This document shows, in pieces, positions 50 to 13,127 of a DNA stretch of 25,153 nt. Position numbers and translations under genes: made by a program. Source of the DNA: a virus; UHGV virus genome UHGV-0073209; one strand, given 5' to 3'. The notes beneath the pieces are model-generated. The model did no database searches, was not told the DNA's origin, and saw nothing but the letters and a program-made list of their open reading frames with translations. How positions within the stretch are numbered: the stretch's first letter is position 1; the number at the start of each line of letters is the position of its first letter.

Positions 50-1057
50 CTACCTGACCTCTTCACGATTATCAAAAGGGTTTAACGCAACGGCAGCATC
101 AAGATGATTGGGGGCGAAATGCGCATACCTCATCGTCATCATGATCGTACTGTGCCCGAGTATCTGCTGAAGCACTAAAATATTCCCCCCACGCATCATA
201 AAGTGACTTGCGAAGGTATGGCGTAGTACATGGGTACGCTGCCCCCTTGGCAACTCAATAGCGGCTCGTGCAAGCGCTGATTTGAATGCTTCGTATGCTG
301 GAGTAAAAAGTGCTCCGCGTTTTTTGGGTAGCAGCTTCTGTAGCTGTTCAGAAATCGGTACAGTTCGATTTTTTTTGCTTTTGGTCTGCGTAAACGTCAA
401 CCGGCCAGGCAGAACCTGAGATTGCTTTAAATCCTGCGCCTCGCTCCACCTTGCGCCGGTCGCCAGGCATATCCGCACTATGACCCCCAAATCCTTATTT
501 GCCGATTGATCGCAGGCCGACAAAAGTCGCACTATCTCCTCATCGTAGAGGAAGGCCAGCTCCTGATCCCCCTCCTTGAATTGCCTGATGCCCGACAGTG
601 GGTTATCGCCCTCCCATTCACCCAACCGCTTCATCTCTGAAAAAACCGCGTGCAGGTACGACTGCTCGCGATTTACCGTCGCCTCACTGAGTTTCTTTTT
701 GCCTTTCTGATTCCACTCACCGGCCAATCGTTTTTCACGATAAACCGCAAATGTATTTTTATCGAAGCGAGACGCGAGGGGATCGCCCAGGCGCTCGCAA
801 ATCGCCAATAACTTCACCTTGCGTTCATCCCCAGATGTTAGCGTTTTGCCGTGCATTTCGTACCAGCGCTCAACGAAAGCAGAAAGCGTCACCGCGCTGT
901 CGTTTACCTCCTGACTAGTTGCGTTGTTCATGGTGCGGCGCTCAAAAGAGAGCGCCTCGCCTTTGGTAGCAAACTGCTTACGAATACGCTTTCCGTCACG
1001 ACCATACGGAAAGCACTGGCATAACCATTTTCCTGATGTGAGCTTACGAACGGTCAT
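50..1057 (-). CDS. int: Tyrosine site-specific integrase (P2 Int-like)
   Basis: N-terminus MTVRKLTSGKW...GRDGKRIRKQFATKGEALSFE resembles P2 Int (MAIKKL...GRNGKRIRRKFDKKSEAVAFE). C-terminal HTFASHFMMRGG...LGHSTIMMTMRYAHF is the tyrosine recombinase catalytic region. The track ORF runs to 1141; I place the start at ATG 1055-1057. Confidence 0.9.
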   Translation of the reverse strand: MTVRKLTSGKWLCQCFPYGRDGKRIRKQFATKGEALSFERRTMNNATSQEVNDSAVTLSAFVERWYEMHGKTLTSGDERKVKLLAICERLGDPLASRFDKNTFAVYREKRLAGEWNQKGKKKLSEATVNREQSYLHAVFSEMKRLGEWEGDNPLSGIRQFKEGDQELAFLYDEEIVRLLSACDQSANKDLGVIVRICLATGARWSEAQDLKQSQVLPGRLTFTQTKSKKNRTVPISEQLQKLLPKKRGALFTPAYEAFKSALARAAIELPRGQRTHVLRHTFASHFMMRGGNILVLQQILGHSTIMMTMRYAHFAPNHLDAAVALNPFDNREEVR

Positions 1058-2240
1058 AATTGAACAAATCCACAAATTTAGGCACTTGCTCTGATTTCCT
1101 CTCCCAGTAACACCCAGACTGAAGCAATGATATGAAATCATCTTGGGTCATTGAGAGTGTACTTGTTGTTATCAGGCGTTTTTTGGTCTCGTCTGGAGTC
1201 AAAAGCTCAACCGTAACAGTACCCGGATCATATGATTGGCTTTCCATGAGGATTGGTGCATCAGTTAGTTTTCTGGGGGTAATTAGACGATTAGGGTTGA
1301 AATCACCAGTAAAGCTTCCTTCAAATGATGCGATGGTCTCGTAACCGGAGAAACAGTCAAATTGTATTTGCAATACCATCGCATGAGGTAATGTTAAAAA
1401 CTCACTCCAATCTGTGTAGCCTAATTTGTCACTATAAAAAGTATCGCCGCGCTGGAACTGGTAAGACGTTCCTTGCGTCCATACATCATAGGTGTTTTTT
1501 TCAAATGTTATTTTAGTTAGTTTAATGTCTAGCTTGCTTTTGAATACTTCTTTGATTGCGAATTTCCATCCGGCTGCATAGCCATCAATAAAGTTTGCAA
1601 TAAGGGCGGTGCTTCTACGAGGCTCTCTTAACGTTCTAAATGTAAGGGATAGTGCTTCCAAATCTTTTTTCAGCGAATCTACTTCGGAAGTGATTTTCTC
1701 TTCATGAATAACATCTAGCTCAGGCGCTTCGTAGGGAATCTCACCAGTCTCTATAAAGGCGATGAACTGTTCTTTGCTTATGATAAAGGCGTTTCGAGCC
1801 CTTGCCTCTTCAATCTTCCTCCACCCCATATTATCCCCTACGCAAAGGAAATATAGGTTTGCAGAAACACCGCCTTTAACAGATAAGTTGTTATTCTTCG
1901 CTAATTCGGTTAAATATGCTTTGTCAGCCTGCTTAAAACCAGTAAAACAGATTTCTAAATTATTTCCTCTTTCCAATTTACGACTAGGGCGTGGCTGCGT
2001 TTTCGGTACGATGGATTCTTTGTCCAAAGTAGCATTAAGCAATTCATCTTCCGACATGAACATTTTCAGAACTCGATCTTTTCTAAAAGTCCTGAATGCC
2101 TTTCGATTAATAGAGTAGCCTTGGAAAAACTCATCTCGCTCAACTACGCGAGTTACACTTTGCCGTGACACCTCTCCTTTGACATTGATGTAATGGAAGA
2201 AAGCATTTTTATCTTCATTGATAAGAGATGAATCAAACAT
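1044..2240 (-). CDS. Hypothetical 398-aa cargo protein: WYL-like N-terminal domain, central BRCT-like domain, unknown C-terminal domain of about 230 aa
   Basis: ATG at 2238-2240 with AAGGAG 6 nt upstream on the minus strand. Residues about 14-57 (FFHYINVKGEVSRQSVTRVVERDEFFQGYSINRKAFRTFRKDRV) fit the WYL-domain pattern ending in RTFRxDRI. Residues about 95-165 (ICFTGF...LSVKGGVSANLYFLCVGDNMGWRKIEEARARNAFIISKEQFIAFI) fit the LigA-type BRCT pattern. Its stop overlaps the int start by 14 nt. Confidence 0.8.
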   Translation of the reverse strand: MFDSSLINEDKNAFFHYINVKGEVSRQSVTRVVERDEFFQGYSINRKAFRTFRKDRVLKMFMSEDELLNATLDKESIVPKTQPRPSRKLERGNNLEICFTGFKQADKAYLTELAKNNNLSVKGGVSANLYFLCVGDNMGWRKIEEARARNAFIISKEQFIAFIETGEIPYEAPELDVIHEEKITSEVDSLKKDLEALSLTFRTLREPRRSTALIANFIDGYAAGWKFAIKEVFKSKLDIKLTKITFEKNTYDVWTQGTSYQFQRGDTFYSDKLGYTDWSEFLTLPHAMVLQIQFDCFSGYETIASFEGSFTGDFNPNRLITPRKLTDAPILMESQSYDPGTVTVELLTPDETKKRLITTSTLSMTQDDFISLLQSGCYWERKSEQVPKFVDLFNYDRS

Positions 2241-2282
2241 TTATCACTCCTTTATTTTTTTAATTGGCTCTAATTCTGTGAA

Positions 2283-2636
2283 TTAATCGTCACCAGTTTT
2301 TACTCGTGGCTTTGATTGCGCAAACGCATCACCAACCGCCTGTATGTTTAAGCGCGCCGCCTCATCCATCGCGCGGTAGTTTTCTATGAGTTTTTTTTCT
2401 TCTTCGCTTTCCGTGACCATGCCATCTGGTTGGAGGGTCCGTTGCCCAGTAAGTACATACAATATATCAACCCCGATTTTTGCCAGTGCCGAGAGGTATT
2501 TTGCATCTGGTGATCTCTCATCTCGTTCGTAGTAGGCCTGAGAACCACGTGACTGTTCTGCCAGTTTGGCAAAATCTGTTTGATTTAATCCGAGTTTATC
2601 CCGCTCCTCGCGAAGCCTGCTTCCGAATGTGGACAT
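2283..2636 (-). CDS. HTH (XRE/Cro-CI type) immunity repressor, P2 C-like by position and fold
   Basis: LREERDKLGLNQTDFAKLAEQSRGSQAYYERDERSPDAKYLSALAKIGVDILYVLTG is a Cro/CI-type helix-turn-helix. It is transcribed divergently from the early operon and lies upstream of int, as P2 C does. Confidence 0.8.
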   Translation of the reverse strand: MSTFGSRLREERDKLGLNQTDFAKLAEQSRGSQAYYERDERSPDAKYLSALAKIGVDILYVLTGQRTLQPDGMVTESEEEKKLIENYRAMDEAARLNIQAVGDAFAQSKPRVKTGDD

Positions 2637-10452: not shown

Positions 10453-10491
10453 GCACCGCCATTTTTGGCGGTGCTGCAGGTGTTATTTTTT
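10453..10491 (+). terminator. Possible hairpin / weak intrinsic terminator between the 185-aa ORF and the second methylase
   Basis: 8-bp stem GCACCGCC/GGCGGTGC (10453-10460 and 10467-10474) with loop ATTTTT, then a T6 run at 10486-10491. The T-tract is displaced from the stem, so non-canonical. Confidence 0.3.
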
Positions 10492-10507
10492 GGGGAGCGA
10501 GAAGGCT

Positions 10508-11203
10508 ATGAGTTATCTGGGAAGCAAAGCGGCCAGCGGTGTTTATCAAAAAATCATCGCTGAAATGCCGCCGCACGATACCTACATTGAAACGCATTTA
10601 GGCGGCGGCGCGATCATGCTGCGCAAACCTCCGGCAAAAGTGAATTGGGGGATCGATATCGACCCGCAAACCATCGAGGCGTTTAACCAGAGCAACCCTG
10701 ATTTTCTGGATAGGATGGCGGACACCCTATTTATTGATGTTGGGGATGCCGTCGAGTTCTTGTGTTGTTTCGATTACGCCTCCGCCGGCCGCGTCTTAAT
10801 TTATTCTGATCCGCCTTATCTCCATGAAACGCGCTCCAGCTCCGCGCGCTATCGGCATGAGTACACCGTTGGTGATCATTACCGCCTGCTGGGATTACTC
10901 TGCTCGATGCCGGAAAACGTGAGCGTAATCGTATCGGGGTATCCTTCTTCGGTTTATGACAACGCCCTGCCGCGCTGGCGCAGCAAGGAGTTTCAGGCCA
11001 TGACGCGCGGCGGCGTTCGTACAGAGAAAATCTGGATGAACTACCCGGAAGGCCGGGCGTATTCGCACGCGTTCGCCGGTAAAGACTACAACGATCGCTA
11101 TCGGATTAAACGAAAAGCGCAGAGATGGAAGGAAAAATTTGCAGCGTTACCACCCGCCGAGAGGTTGGCGATCATGGTGGCGCTTGGTGAGGTCGAAATT
11201 TGA
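10508..11203 (+). CDS. Second N6-adenine DNA methyltransferase, Dam/D12-class, small phage type
   Basis: N-terminal YLGSKAASGV...IETHLGGGAIML and LIYSDPPYLHETR (DPPY motif). Start placed at ATG 10508; the track ORF starts at an upstream alternative codon (10490). Confidence 0.8.
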   Translation: MSYLGSKAASGVYQKIIAEMPPHDTYIETHLGGGAIMLRKPPAKVNWGIDIDPQTIEAFNQSNPDFLDRMADTLFIDVGDAVEFLCCFDYASAGRVLIYSDPPYLHETRSSSARYRHEYTVGDHYRLLGLLCSMPENVSVIVSGYPSSVYDNALPRWRSKEFQAMTRGGVRTEKIWMNYPEGRAYSHAFAGKDYNDRYRIKRKAQRWKEKFAALPPAERLAIMVALGEVEI

Positions 11204-11321
11204 TTACGTTATTTAATGGAAGAATGATTGTTGTGTGGTTGATGTTTGCCACTAGTATTGCTATTGTCTATTCATTGTTTGATGCTTGTTTGAGTCTAAA
11301 TAGAAATCTAATGGTGAAAAT

Positions 11322-11675
11322 ATGTTAAATAATCAGGATTATGCTTTCATTAACAATACAGTAAATTCAATTAAATCAACAATGATCAGCCTTGCTAGTG
11401 AGTACGGCCCTGATTATTGTTCAGATTTTCTGATTACGTTCGAATCAATTAAAAACAATACGAGTCGGCTACGACTAACGGATGTGACCATTAACGAATA
11501 CATATCGCTTATTCGTGGTCATAACATGAACGTTCAGAGCCATCCACAAGGATTGCTGGTACAAGCTCACGTTAGCTCGATTTTGCTGGCTCCGAATGAT
11601 GCTGTGGCCCTATCGAATTCTCTCCAGATGTTTCGTGGCCGCGCAGCCCTCAACGGCGATTACGAGAACATCTAA
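11322..11675 (+). CDS. Hypothetical protein (117 aa) encoded in an AT-rich island
   Basis: A 117-codon ORF in DNA of roughly one-third GC, where chance ORFs are unlikely. GGTGA Shine-Dalgarno-like upstream; AT-rich 118-bp upstream region. No recognisable domain. Confidence 0.6.
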   Translation: MLNNQDYAFINNTVNSIKSTMISLASEYGPDYCSDFLITFESIKNNTSRLRLTDVTINEYISLIRGHNMNVQSHPQGLLVQAHVSSILLAPNDAVALSNSLQMFRGRAALNGDYENI

Positions 11676-11708
11676 GCACGAAACGAAATGGTTTTCTATC
11701 GCGCAAAC

Positions 11709-12074: not shown

Positions 12075-13127
12075 TCACTTCGGGGTTTCCAGCAGGGCGT
12101 AAGGGTTGAAGCGGATCACCTCTTCACCGAGCCAGTCGTTAACATGCTTCATCGCTTCCATGACCGGTGTCAGTTCGTTGACCGCGAATACCCTGGCTGC
12201 CTTCTCGACGTCGCCGAATGATCCGTTGCCTTCAGGTATGGCGCCCATCAGTTGCGGCGGCACGCGGTGAGCCGCAAGCATGTCGTCACGCGTGGAGGAC
12301 TTCACACCCACAAACTCATCCTTTGCCGATATCTGGCTGAAGGGCAGGATCTGCACGGCATCTTTGCCGACACCGGGCGCACTCAGCAGGATGTTTTTAA
12401 ATGCCCCGCCGCGCCGGGTATCGGTCAATGTCTTCTTCAGGTTCTCCAGGCTTTCCCCGTCAGCCACTGCGCTGCTGACGTAGACAATACAGCCGGCATG
12501 CGACCCGTTGTCGTAGTAGAGCTTGCGGAACTTGTCGGCGGAGTGCGCCAGGTTCGCCGACAGCAGGCCGGCGAAATACTCCGGCATGCCGTAGATCTCC
12601 TGGTGAATATCCGGGTTGATCACATGGCACACCGAACCGGTTTCGAACGGGTGGTCATCAAGGCCAGACTGAATAAACCAGTAGGTGTCTAGGTCGGAAC
12701 CGCGCCGGGTGTACTTCGCCAGCGAGTTACGAAAGCCCATTGGCCCATTCAGGCGGTTGCGCCGCATCTCAAGGTACGCATTGCCGAACACAAACCAGTC
12801 GAGCGCAAAGGCGCTGAACGCCTGGCGCGATAACAGTTTGTGCGGGATAAAGCATCCGGCCAGCACGTTACGCTTGAAGAACAGCGCCGACTGGTGCCAG
12901 CTCGCATAGCCGAACTGGCGGGCCAGTCCGTACCAGCTGATCGGCGTCTCGTAGTACCGGCCATTATTGGCGCAGTACATGTTATCCAGCAGGTCATGAG
13001 CACCGGTCACCGGCCACGGGCCGTCGAACGTGAACGCGCTCAGGCCGGGGGCCGACTTCAGCGCGTCGGCGAGGTCGGCTTGCTCTCTGGCATACTGCCT
13101 GCCGCGCGGGGATTTTCGTCTGCTCAT
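12075..13127 (-). CDS. Q: Portal protein (P2 gpQ-like)
   Basis: 350-aa ORF divergent from the capsid operon. Its start overlaps the terminase stop (ATGA at 13125-13129), the Q-P arrangement of P2. Confidence 0.88.
   Translation of the reverse strand: MSRRKSPRGRQYAREQADLADALKSAPGLSAFTFDGPWPVTGAHDLLDNMYCANNGRYYETPISWYGLARQFGYASWHQSALFFKRNVLAGCFIPHKLLSRQAFSAFALDWFVFGNAYLEMRRNRLNGPMGFRNSLAKYTRRGSDLDTYWFIQSGLDDHPFETGSVCHVINPDIHQEIYGMPEYFAGLLSANLAHSADKFRKLYYDNGSHAGCIVYVSSAVADGESLENLKKTLTDTRRGGAFKNILLSAPGVGKDAVQILPFSQISAKDEFVGVKSSTRDDMLAAHRVPPQLMGAIPEGNGSFGDVEKAARVFAVNELTPVMEAMKHVNDWLGEEVIRFNPYALLETPK

Follow-up and report, generated by a model that had tools for sequence, protein, structure and literature searches.

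Which function might be served by a gene that lies between immunity repressor and integrase in a P2/186-like phage? The question is raised by the virus genome UHGV-0073209, of which a stretch of 25,153 nucleotides (nt)—the window—was analyzed, and by an open reading frame (ORF) of 398 amino acids therein, ORF398. Its protein appears to be composed of a WYL domain, a BRCT domain, and a C-terminal part that was previously without name and is called X in the following. Judged by profile searches, X is a widespread domain family, whose members directly follow the NAD+-dependent DNA ligase gene ligA in uncultured bacteria and recur beside phage integrases. This company of X, together with the position of ORF398 and the DNA-binding character predicted for its other two domains, guides the explanations that we weigh below.

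ORF398 within the lysogeny operon

On the minus strand of the window, a 117-amino acid helix-turn-helix (HTH) repressor, ORF398, and a tyrosine integrase follow each other in this order:

2283..2636, minus strand: immunity repressor, 117 amino acids, first gene of the operon (Pfam HTH_3, E 8.6e-07; no S24 peptidase domain)
2247..2252, minus strand: AAGGAG ribosome-binding site, 6 nt before the ATG at 2240, read from the sequence
1044..2240, minus strand: WYL-BRCT-X gene (ORF398), 398 amino acids, stop codon included (ORF list, homologues, and phrog_36782)
50..1057, minus strand: tyrosine integrase, 335 amino acids from the ATG at 1057 (Pfam Int_N, E 6e-32; Phage_integrase, E 3e-23)

The repressor ORF and ORF398 are separated by 42 nt, a gap in which no terminator-like site was found, and the most plausible int start (ATG 1057, MTVRKL...) overlaps the end of ORF398 by 14 nt (1044–1057). 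An earlier note on this DNA had described the 398-amino acid ORF, its AAGGAG site, the gap, and the overlap in the same way, which the sequence and the ORF list confirm; its placement of the gene in a repressor–int operon agrees with the gene order, the overlap, and the gap free of terminator-like sites. ORF398 is an accessory gene of this lysogeny operon—repressor, ORF398, int—and its protein should therefore already be present in lysogens.

We regard ORF398 as a real gene, because 26 homologues are conserved along its whole length (97–43% identity, all from Enterobacterales or metagenomic sources) and because it matches phrog_36782, a full-length family of the PHROGs collection with no assigned function, with an E value of 2.5e-74. 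The gene is accessory, patchy, and low in guanine–cytosine (GC) content, which amounts to 0.40–0.42 over positions 1001–2500 versus 0.53–0.64 across most of the window. The rest of the window is that of a P2/186-like phage, with a gpA replication protein, a Dam methylase, an Rv2179c-like exonuclease, and late genes.

The WYL and BRCT domains

AlphaFold2, run on the family alignment, yields a model with a predicted local distance difference test (pLDDT) score of 77 and four parts: a five-stranded β unit (residues 13–61), an α/β part (96–165), a long helix (173–200), and a β-rich C-terminal half (about 205–391). Combined with the sequence comparisons, this gives the following predicted layout of the protein:

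2058..2204, minus strand: WYL-like β-barrel, residues 13–61, motif FFQGYS...RTFRKDRV (five AlphaFold2 strands; WYL matches of homologues)
1746..1961, minus strand: BRCT domain of the LigA/RFC1 class, residues 94–165 (T100-G101, K/R at 107, and K142 kept)
1641..1724, minus strand: long linker helix, residues 173–200 (AlphaFold2 secondary structure; pLDDT low, 50–65)
1386..1628, minus strand: X domain core, residues 205–285, motifs R-S-x-x-LIA-x-F-x-DGYA-x-GW-x-FAV, ALDIK, and WTQG-x-x-Y-x-F-x-x-GD (profile search)
1068..1385, minus strand: C-terminal β-rich X subdomain, residues 286–391, found in about half of the X-family members

The N-terminus, within which EFFQGYSINRKAFRTFRKDRV corresponds to residues 37–57 of the ORF398 translation, is assigned to the WYL domains by transitive homology, because the window protein itself stays below the Pfam threshold—there is no match to WYL (PF13280) at E ≤ 1—while its relatives match. 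The homologue P0029 (161 amino acids, 35% identical over the N-terminal module) passes Pfam WYL with 23.8 bits against a gathering score of 21.8, and 4 of the 11 members of the N-module family match WYL. Built from the first 64 residues, a profile finds PafC (E 0.057) and PafBC (E 0.29) as best matches in the PDB, aligned on the YxxGYC...RTFRKDRI strand. The WYL domain that the earlier note had read from the motif is hence probably correct on this indirect route. WYL domains of CapW, DriD, and PafBC bind single-stranded DNA (ssDNA) that arises from damage or infection (PMC11662680, PMC9186387, PMC11804915).

For the second domain, which had been placed at about residues 95–165, residues 94–165 show both the BRCT sequence profile (PF00533) and the α/β fold. 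Aligned to RFC1, the domain shows the T-G, R/K, and K residues of the 5'-phosphate pocket, which are kept in its family: T100 in at least 90% of the sequences, G101 and K142 invariantly, and K or R at position 107 in 24 of 25. The domain thus appears to belong to the 5'-phosphate-binding class of BRCT domains and is predicted to bind 5'-phosphorylated DNA ends or nicks. Ligase models of NCBIfam (LigA) align to the window protein over their C-terminal BRCT end only, reaching 22.4 bits where 1051 are required, and a Pfam scan of the window protein detects no adenylation, OB, zinc-finger, or HhH domain. Because these domains are missing, ORF398 is ruled out as an NAD+-dependent DNA ligase. As a separate observation, the last BRCT helix SKEQFIAFIETGEIP (residues 148–166) and a helix near the end of X, TQDDFISLLQSG (residues 364–376), give a short reciprocal hidden Markov model (HMM) match in many family members, which is too short for a homology call.

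Together, the two domains seem to form a module that is widespread as a stand-alone phage protein. Residues 15–170 match phrog_2561 (167 amino acids, E 1.4e-35), and the module also matches proteins of about 160–178 amino acids in P2-like phages of Yersinia, Escherichia coli, Burkholderia, Vibrio, Mannheimia, and Pseudomonas; these short homologues were taken from phage records, as a word-indexed search with the N-terminal 172 amino acids gave four proteins only. In phages of Mannheimia and Burkholderia and in Vibrio PV94, the short gene is the next one after the CI repressor; in Yersinia MLG42 and E. coli 500465-1, it lies just across attP from int and in the same direction. It occurs in 176 of 5426 complete E. 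coli genomes, and a nearby X gene, looked for in the phages that carry WYL-BRCT only, was not found. The one relevant mention found in the literature is an in silico note of 2014 on the existence of WYL-BRCT fusions (PMC4012209). The short proteins (L006 4986–5468; L009 3471–3989; phrog_2561) carry the label "DNA ligase" in PHROGs and in phage entries of RefSeq. Pfam scans match BRCT in them and WYL in some, and never a ligase domain, so that the label appears to derive from the BRCT domain alone.

The X domain, its neighbors, and the repressor–integrase slot

The last 230 residues or so had been described in the earlier note as free of any recognizable motif. This holds insofar as sequence-profile searches with X against Pfam, PADLOC, and the PDB give no match; the region is, however, no orphan. 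Searched against 1.84 billion proteins, a profile of residues 190–398 retrieves 703 cluster representatives (E ≤ 1e-3)—mostly stand-alone proteins of 145–230 amino acids—and the C-terminal part can hence be assigned to a widespread unnamed domain family. We define this family by the core motif R-x3-LIA-x-F-x2-G-x-A-x-GW ... LDI ... TQG ... F-x2-G. Conservation is concentrated in a core at residues 209–282. Near-invariant are R209, F217, W225, L237-D238-I239, T255-Q256-G257, F262, G265, Y275, and W278, all of which are carried by residues 205–285 of the window protein. Over 150 X representatives, the conserved residues are mostly aromatic or aliphatic, with R209, D238, T255, and Q256 in addition; they contain no catalytic-looking set and no nuclease, NADase, pore, or kinase signature, and neither a transmembrane segment nor a fold match was found for X. 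The domain therefore looks non-enzymatic. A weak internal HMM match had suggested the X core as a degenerate second WYL domain, which was rejected at a profile–profile hhalign probability of 1.2%. In the literature on BRCT and WYL domains in a prophage or anti-phage context, no description of X, of a WYL-BRCT-X protein, or of a ligA-X-SWIM cluster was found. Irrespective of any link to ligase, a widespread unannotated domain of about 700 clusters hereby receives a name.

X is found with a recurrent set of partners, fused or adjacent, which comprises BRCT, SWIM, TerB-like-BRCT, and DEDD-exonuclease proteins. Besides the WYL-BRCT-X order of the ORF398 family, fusions comprise WYL-BRCT-X-BRCT (P0025, 485 amino acids), X with WYL (P0078), X with TerB-like repeats and BRCT (P0125, P0091), and SWIM-X-SWIM (P0138), so that X and BRCT are fused in both orders (window protein; P0125, P0091). 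The additional C-terminal segment of P0025 (columns about 430–516 of alignment A1, …ITITGTFSQLDNKAAKQALLALGG…) resembles a second BRCT domain. Two loci, L011 and L012, carry the parts as a split pair: an S24 repressor gene is followed by a 177-amino acid WYL-BRCT protein (31% identical to the N-terminal part of the window protein, E 5e-20) and then by an overlapping X of 226 amino acids. Elsewhere, X genes neighbor genes of BRCT proteins (L018, L048, L022) or of an RNase_T (L013).

The most abundant X clade consists of environmental proteins of 145 amino acids, mutually 80–89% identical, none of which lies in a viral contig. On metagenome contigs of uncultured bacteria, ligA ends 13–78 nt upstream of X and on the same strand in all 32 evaluable loci. 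This ligA is complete—with adenylation, OB, zinc-finger, HhH, and BRCT domains—and 61–76% identical to the copy of L055. A SWIM protein starts 16–52 nt downstream of X in about 25 of the ligA-X loci, a paralogue with HhH and BRCT follows in 12, and 4 loci have a TerB-like-BRCT protein together with an RNase_T exonuclease further on. A distant X (P0046) is divergently adjacent to another ligA. X is therefore not phage-specific; the view that it is restricted to phages was overturned by these contigs. Its conserved set of partners centers on the DNA-binding end of the ligase. Independent of X itself, at least 12 of the ligA-X contigs (L056–L093) show the ligA ORF of about 720 amino acids preceded by an overlapping or abutting ORF of 70–94 amino acids (in X-forward orientation, for example, L061 687–899 and 896–3052, or L084 1611–1823 and 1799–3973). 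The small ORF resembles the LigA N-terminal domain Ia, and the main ORF begins with a second Ia-like stretch; possible readings are a conserved frameshift, a split, and a duplicated ligase N-terminus.

In phages, X genes, alone or fused, hold the repressor–integrase slot of very different lysogeny modules. Full-length homologues of ORF398 lie between repressor and int in prophages of Pectobacterium, Yersinia proxima, and Enterobacter and in metagenomic ones, with pgsA-uvrC next to the integration site, where they overlap int by 14 or 4 nt or leave a gap of a few nt; the 14- or 4-nt overlap is kept in homologues of 61–86% identity. The same position is taken by the full-length gene in IMG/VR contigs of high-GC Pseudomonas-like phages (L030, L034, L036). 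Where X stands without WYL-BRCT, the gene orders read HTH, X (153 amino acids), zinc-ribbon protein, int (L038); CI-type repressor, X (271 amino acids), int (L039); CI-type repressor, SWIM, X (184 amino acids), int (L040); and HTH_3, HExxH peptide, X (263 amino acids), 136-amino acid protein, int (L041). By Pfam, the repressors of X-gene loci are of HTH_3 or Phage_CI_repr type with or without S24, and the integrases are of four different subtypes.

The earlier note had suggested a comparison of the int–C junction of related prophages for variable cargo, and the content of the slot does differ among the lysogeny modules compared: it is empty in Yersinia phage MLG42, where cI and int are adjacent, and otherwise holds WYL-BRCT alone, Flk_N with WYL-BRCT-X, X alone, SWIM with X, or extra conflict genes. 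The Flk_N-family protein (200–209 amino acids) stands between repressor and WYL-BRCT-X gene in L005, L020, L022, and L052 (e.g., L052 4356–4985) and is not present in the window. In L011 (5804–8380) and L012, genes for DUF2326, MC6/MC8, and CTD12 lie between the split WYL-BRCT/X pair and the integrase; we take these to be components of predicted NTP-dependent conflict systems. The full-length homologue of E. coli, P0008, lies across attP from int, and a hok/gef-family toxin gene is directly beside it (L001–L004 7351–7496), at a prophage end near ogr and the host gene ytfP. This full-length version is found in 1 of 5426 E. coli genomes, and the full-length type in five loci of about 100,000 species genomes, scanned with alignment A2, as the diversity of the broad X alignment A4 made it unsuitable for this purpose. 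On plasmids, the full-length type was essentially not found; a plasmid-borne origin is essentially excluded. For K139-like, P2-related Vibrio prophages, the cI–int interval has been described as an anti-phage hotspot (Rousset et al. 2022, PMC9122126). The loci compiled here extend this idea of a cI–int hotspot to Enterobacterales, Pseudomonas-like, and other phages.

Two further observations concern the window itself. The repressor shows sub-threshold NCBIfam matches to DicA and RstR and PHROG matches to transcriptional regulator or repressor families; because it bears no S24 peptidase domain, it is probably not RecA-cleavable. Weak PADLOC matches relate the same ORF (2283–2636) to the HTH regions of capH (E 6.9e-6) and RmrA. 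A second low-GC patch at 10490–11700 (0.41 at 11001–11500) separates the replication-side genes from the opposite-strand late genes, which start at 12075, and contains a 237-amino acid ORF (TTG start, weak partial D12-methylase match) and a 117-amino acid ORF with no Pfam match. Its position is presumably that of the cos-adjacent anti-phage hotspot of P2.

Possible functions and comparison with known systems

Judged by its domains, ORF398 probably acts on nicked or cohesive-ended DNA. The explanation that we favor, if only tentatively, is that of a non-catalytic protein which binds nicks and cohesive ends, is pre-made in lysogens, and blocks the sealing of incoming phage DNA, thereby excluding rivals. 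On the molecular level, the WYL barrel would bind ssDNA and the LigA/RFC1-type BRCT domain the 5'-phosphate at a nick or end, while the long helix would join both to X, a domain of the NAD+-ligase neighborhood. On foreign phage DNA that enters the cell or replicates in it, the protein might bind 5'-phosphate-bearing junctions of single- and double-stranded DNA, such as cohesive ends, cos nicks after annealing, or nicks of replication. Catalytically dead, it would there take the place of the ligase's DNA-binding end, so that sealing would be blocked or misdirected and competing phages would be excluded. Exclusion is favored as the outcome because a protein made by the lysogen would meet the incoming DNA, whereas the product of an incoming genome would come too late for the sealing of its own cos ends. 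The sequences analyzed show the position in the operon, the identity of the domains, the synteny, and the linkage of X to ligA; that the phage protein binds DNA, is connected to ligase, and excludes rivals is what we infer, as is the timing, according to which only a lysogen-resident protein would meet DNA ends before they are sealed.

Several points weigh against such a role in exclusion. The conserved cellular ligA-X-SWIM operon looks like a housekeeping accessory of ligation rather than immunity, and the repeated tight placement upstream of different integrase families could speak for a role in integration instead. The versions of E. coli and Yersinia lie across attP from int and are therefore cut off from the repressor promoter in the prophage. 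The fusion is not obligatory, as both WYL-BRCT and X are also found on their own. A protein that bound to all nicks of the cell would be toxic, and the analysis revealed no basis for specificity; the arginines beside the WYL motif through which CapW contacts ssDNA are not apparent in the ORF398 family alignment. A scan of PADLOC-DB v2, moreover, retrieves no known defense family, the match of ORF398 being confined to the candidate PDC-S48 (E 4.3e-5).

What the ligA linkage itself might mean leads to two readings, both of which we consider doubtful. X might be an undescribed partner domain of the NAD+-ligase pathway, kept as ligA-X-SWIM in a bacterial lineage, which temperate phages captured repeatedly—alone or joined to a ligase-type BRCT and a WYL ssDNA sensor—and set into their repressor–integrase operon, where it would serve as a decoy or adaptor deciding whether nicked or cohesive-ended DNA is sealed. 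If true, prophages would have a new means of excluding rivals, or of controlling their own fate, at the step of DNA ligation. A functional ligase link would imply an overlooked accessory factor of LigA—an essential and well-studied enzyme—and prophages that manipulate DNA sealing. Alternatively, ORF398 might be a helper of lysogenization or integration, which is made with Int, binds nicked or gapped phage DNA, and uses X to engage the NAD+-ligase of the host. The phage circle would thereby be sealed, and could be supercoiled, for recombination by Int, or nicks from recombination or replication would be handled after excision. The overlap of the int start with the gene by 14 or 4 nt in all Enterobacterales and Pseudomonas-like homologues points in this direction, as do the X genes directly upstream of four integrase subfamilies, the order cI, int, attP, gene of the E. 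coli and Yersinia phages—by which transcription depends on the phage not being integrated—and X being a conserved gene of the bacterial ligA operon. However, any gene preceding int is coupled to int, and the coupling may come from the insertion site; site-specific recombination leaves no nicks, and cohesive ends are normally sealed before the product of an incoming genome arrives. Also, most P2/186-like phages do without the gene, as MLG42 illustrates, and its full-length form is very rare.

Further readings place the protein in DNA damage or in cell death. It is unlikely, in our estimate, that ORF398 is a DNA-damage sensor of the lysogenic switch, in which WYL would sense ssDNA and BRCT would sense breaks, and which would antagonize the short non-cleavable repressor or modulate Int and excision for a RecA-independent induction. 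Such a sensor would suit the 117-amino acid repressor with its missing S24 domain, the co-transcription of ORF398 with it, and the role of WYL as ssDNA-triggered DNA-damage sensor in DriD, PafBC, and CapW; yet members of this family also come after self-cleaving repressors of the S24 type (L011, L030, and Mannheimia and Vibrio phages), ORF398 itself has neither an HTH nor any other output domain, and a function as a switch does not agree with X being linked to ligA. Quite improbable is a repair aid by lysogenic conversion, that is, an accessory of the ligase pathway that improves the handling of nicks and gaps in the host and the survival of lysogens under DNA damage. Every recognizable domain is of a nucleic acid-binding kind, and the bacterial ligA-X-SWIM-(HhH-BRCT)-(RNase_T) clusters resemble a set for repair or processing; outside the ligA clade, though, X genes are almost confined to phage lysogeny modules, and their low prevalence speaks against a general fitness factor. 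The least credible role is that of an abortive-infection factor, very unlikely in our view, in which WYL and BRCT sense infection and toxic C-terminal 230 amino acids kill or arrest the cell. This sensor–scaffold–effector architecture had been the proposal of the earlier note, and it would fit the combination of sensor and unknown domain, the module shuffling typical of conflict systems, the hotspot location, and the Hok/Gef or other conflict genes beside some homologues. It finds no direct support, because X looks non-catalytic, is often alone in the slot, and lies directly downstream of ligA in bacteria. Its conservation pattern, the missing transmembrane segment and fold match, and its occurrence with no partner in lysogeny operons and beside the essential ligA are hard to square with a toxin. 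A role in defense is hence one of several live options, among which exclusion at the ligation step is the one we tentatively prefer.

How does this protein compare with known systems? With the regulators of winged HTH (wHTH)-WYL-WCX type—CapW/BrxR, DriD, PafBC—it appears to have in common a WYL-like domain, predicted as a β-barrel, with the RxFRxDR-type strand. However, WYL is N-terminal in ORF398, starting from residue 13, and is followed by BRCT and X, and no HTH family is matched in Pfam or NCBIfam. As the winged HTH and the WCX domain are missing, ORF398 is not a transcription factor of this type. With LigA and RFC1 (p140), it appears to share the class of BRCT domain, but none of the other domains of LigA.

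The published cargo of the K139-like Vibrio hotspot has both slot and phage group in common with ORF398 and is likewise expressed with the lysogeny genes, but differs in kind: restriction–modification, Septu, helicase with DUF2290, PARIS, and similar systems (PMC9122126). No BRCT protein was found in the text or supplements of that study. As the earlier note had expected, no named defense system is matched. The weak PADLOC match to PDC-S48 is restricted to the BRCT region, which aligns with about 100 C-terminal residues of that profile (303–406 of 411), and leaves WYL and X of ORF398 uncovered; a BRCT protein beside the homologue in L022 also matches PDC-S48 (E 1.1e-6), whereas stand-alone X proteins match nothing in PADLOC. 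Literature mentioning this candidate was not found.

Repressor-adjacent genes that are expressed in lysogens and act against other phages are known from rexAB of phage lambda and from BstA of Salmonella phage BTP1. These act via membrane depolarization or a KilA-N protein, and not via BRCT or WYL; ORF398 resembles them in position only, with no relationship in sequence or domains. Alongside these systems, ORF398 appears as accessory cargo of a lysogeny operon that bears putative nucleic acid-sensing domains.

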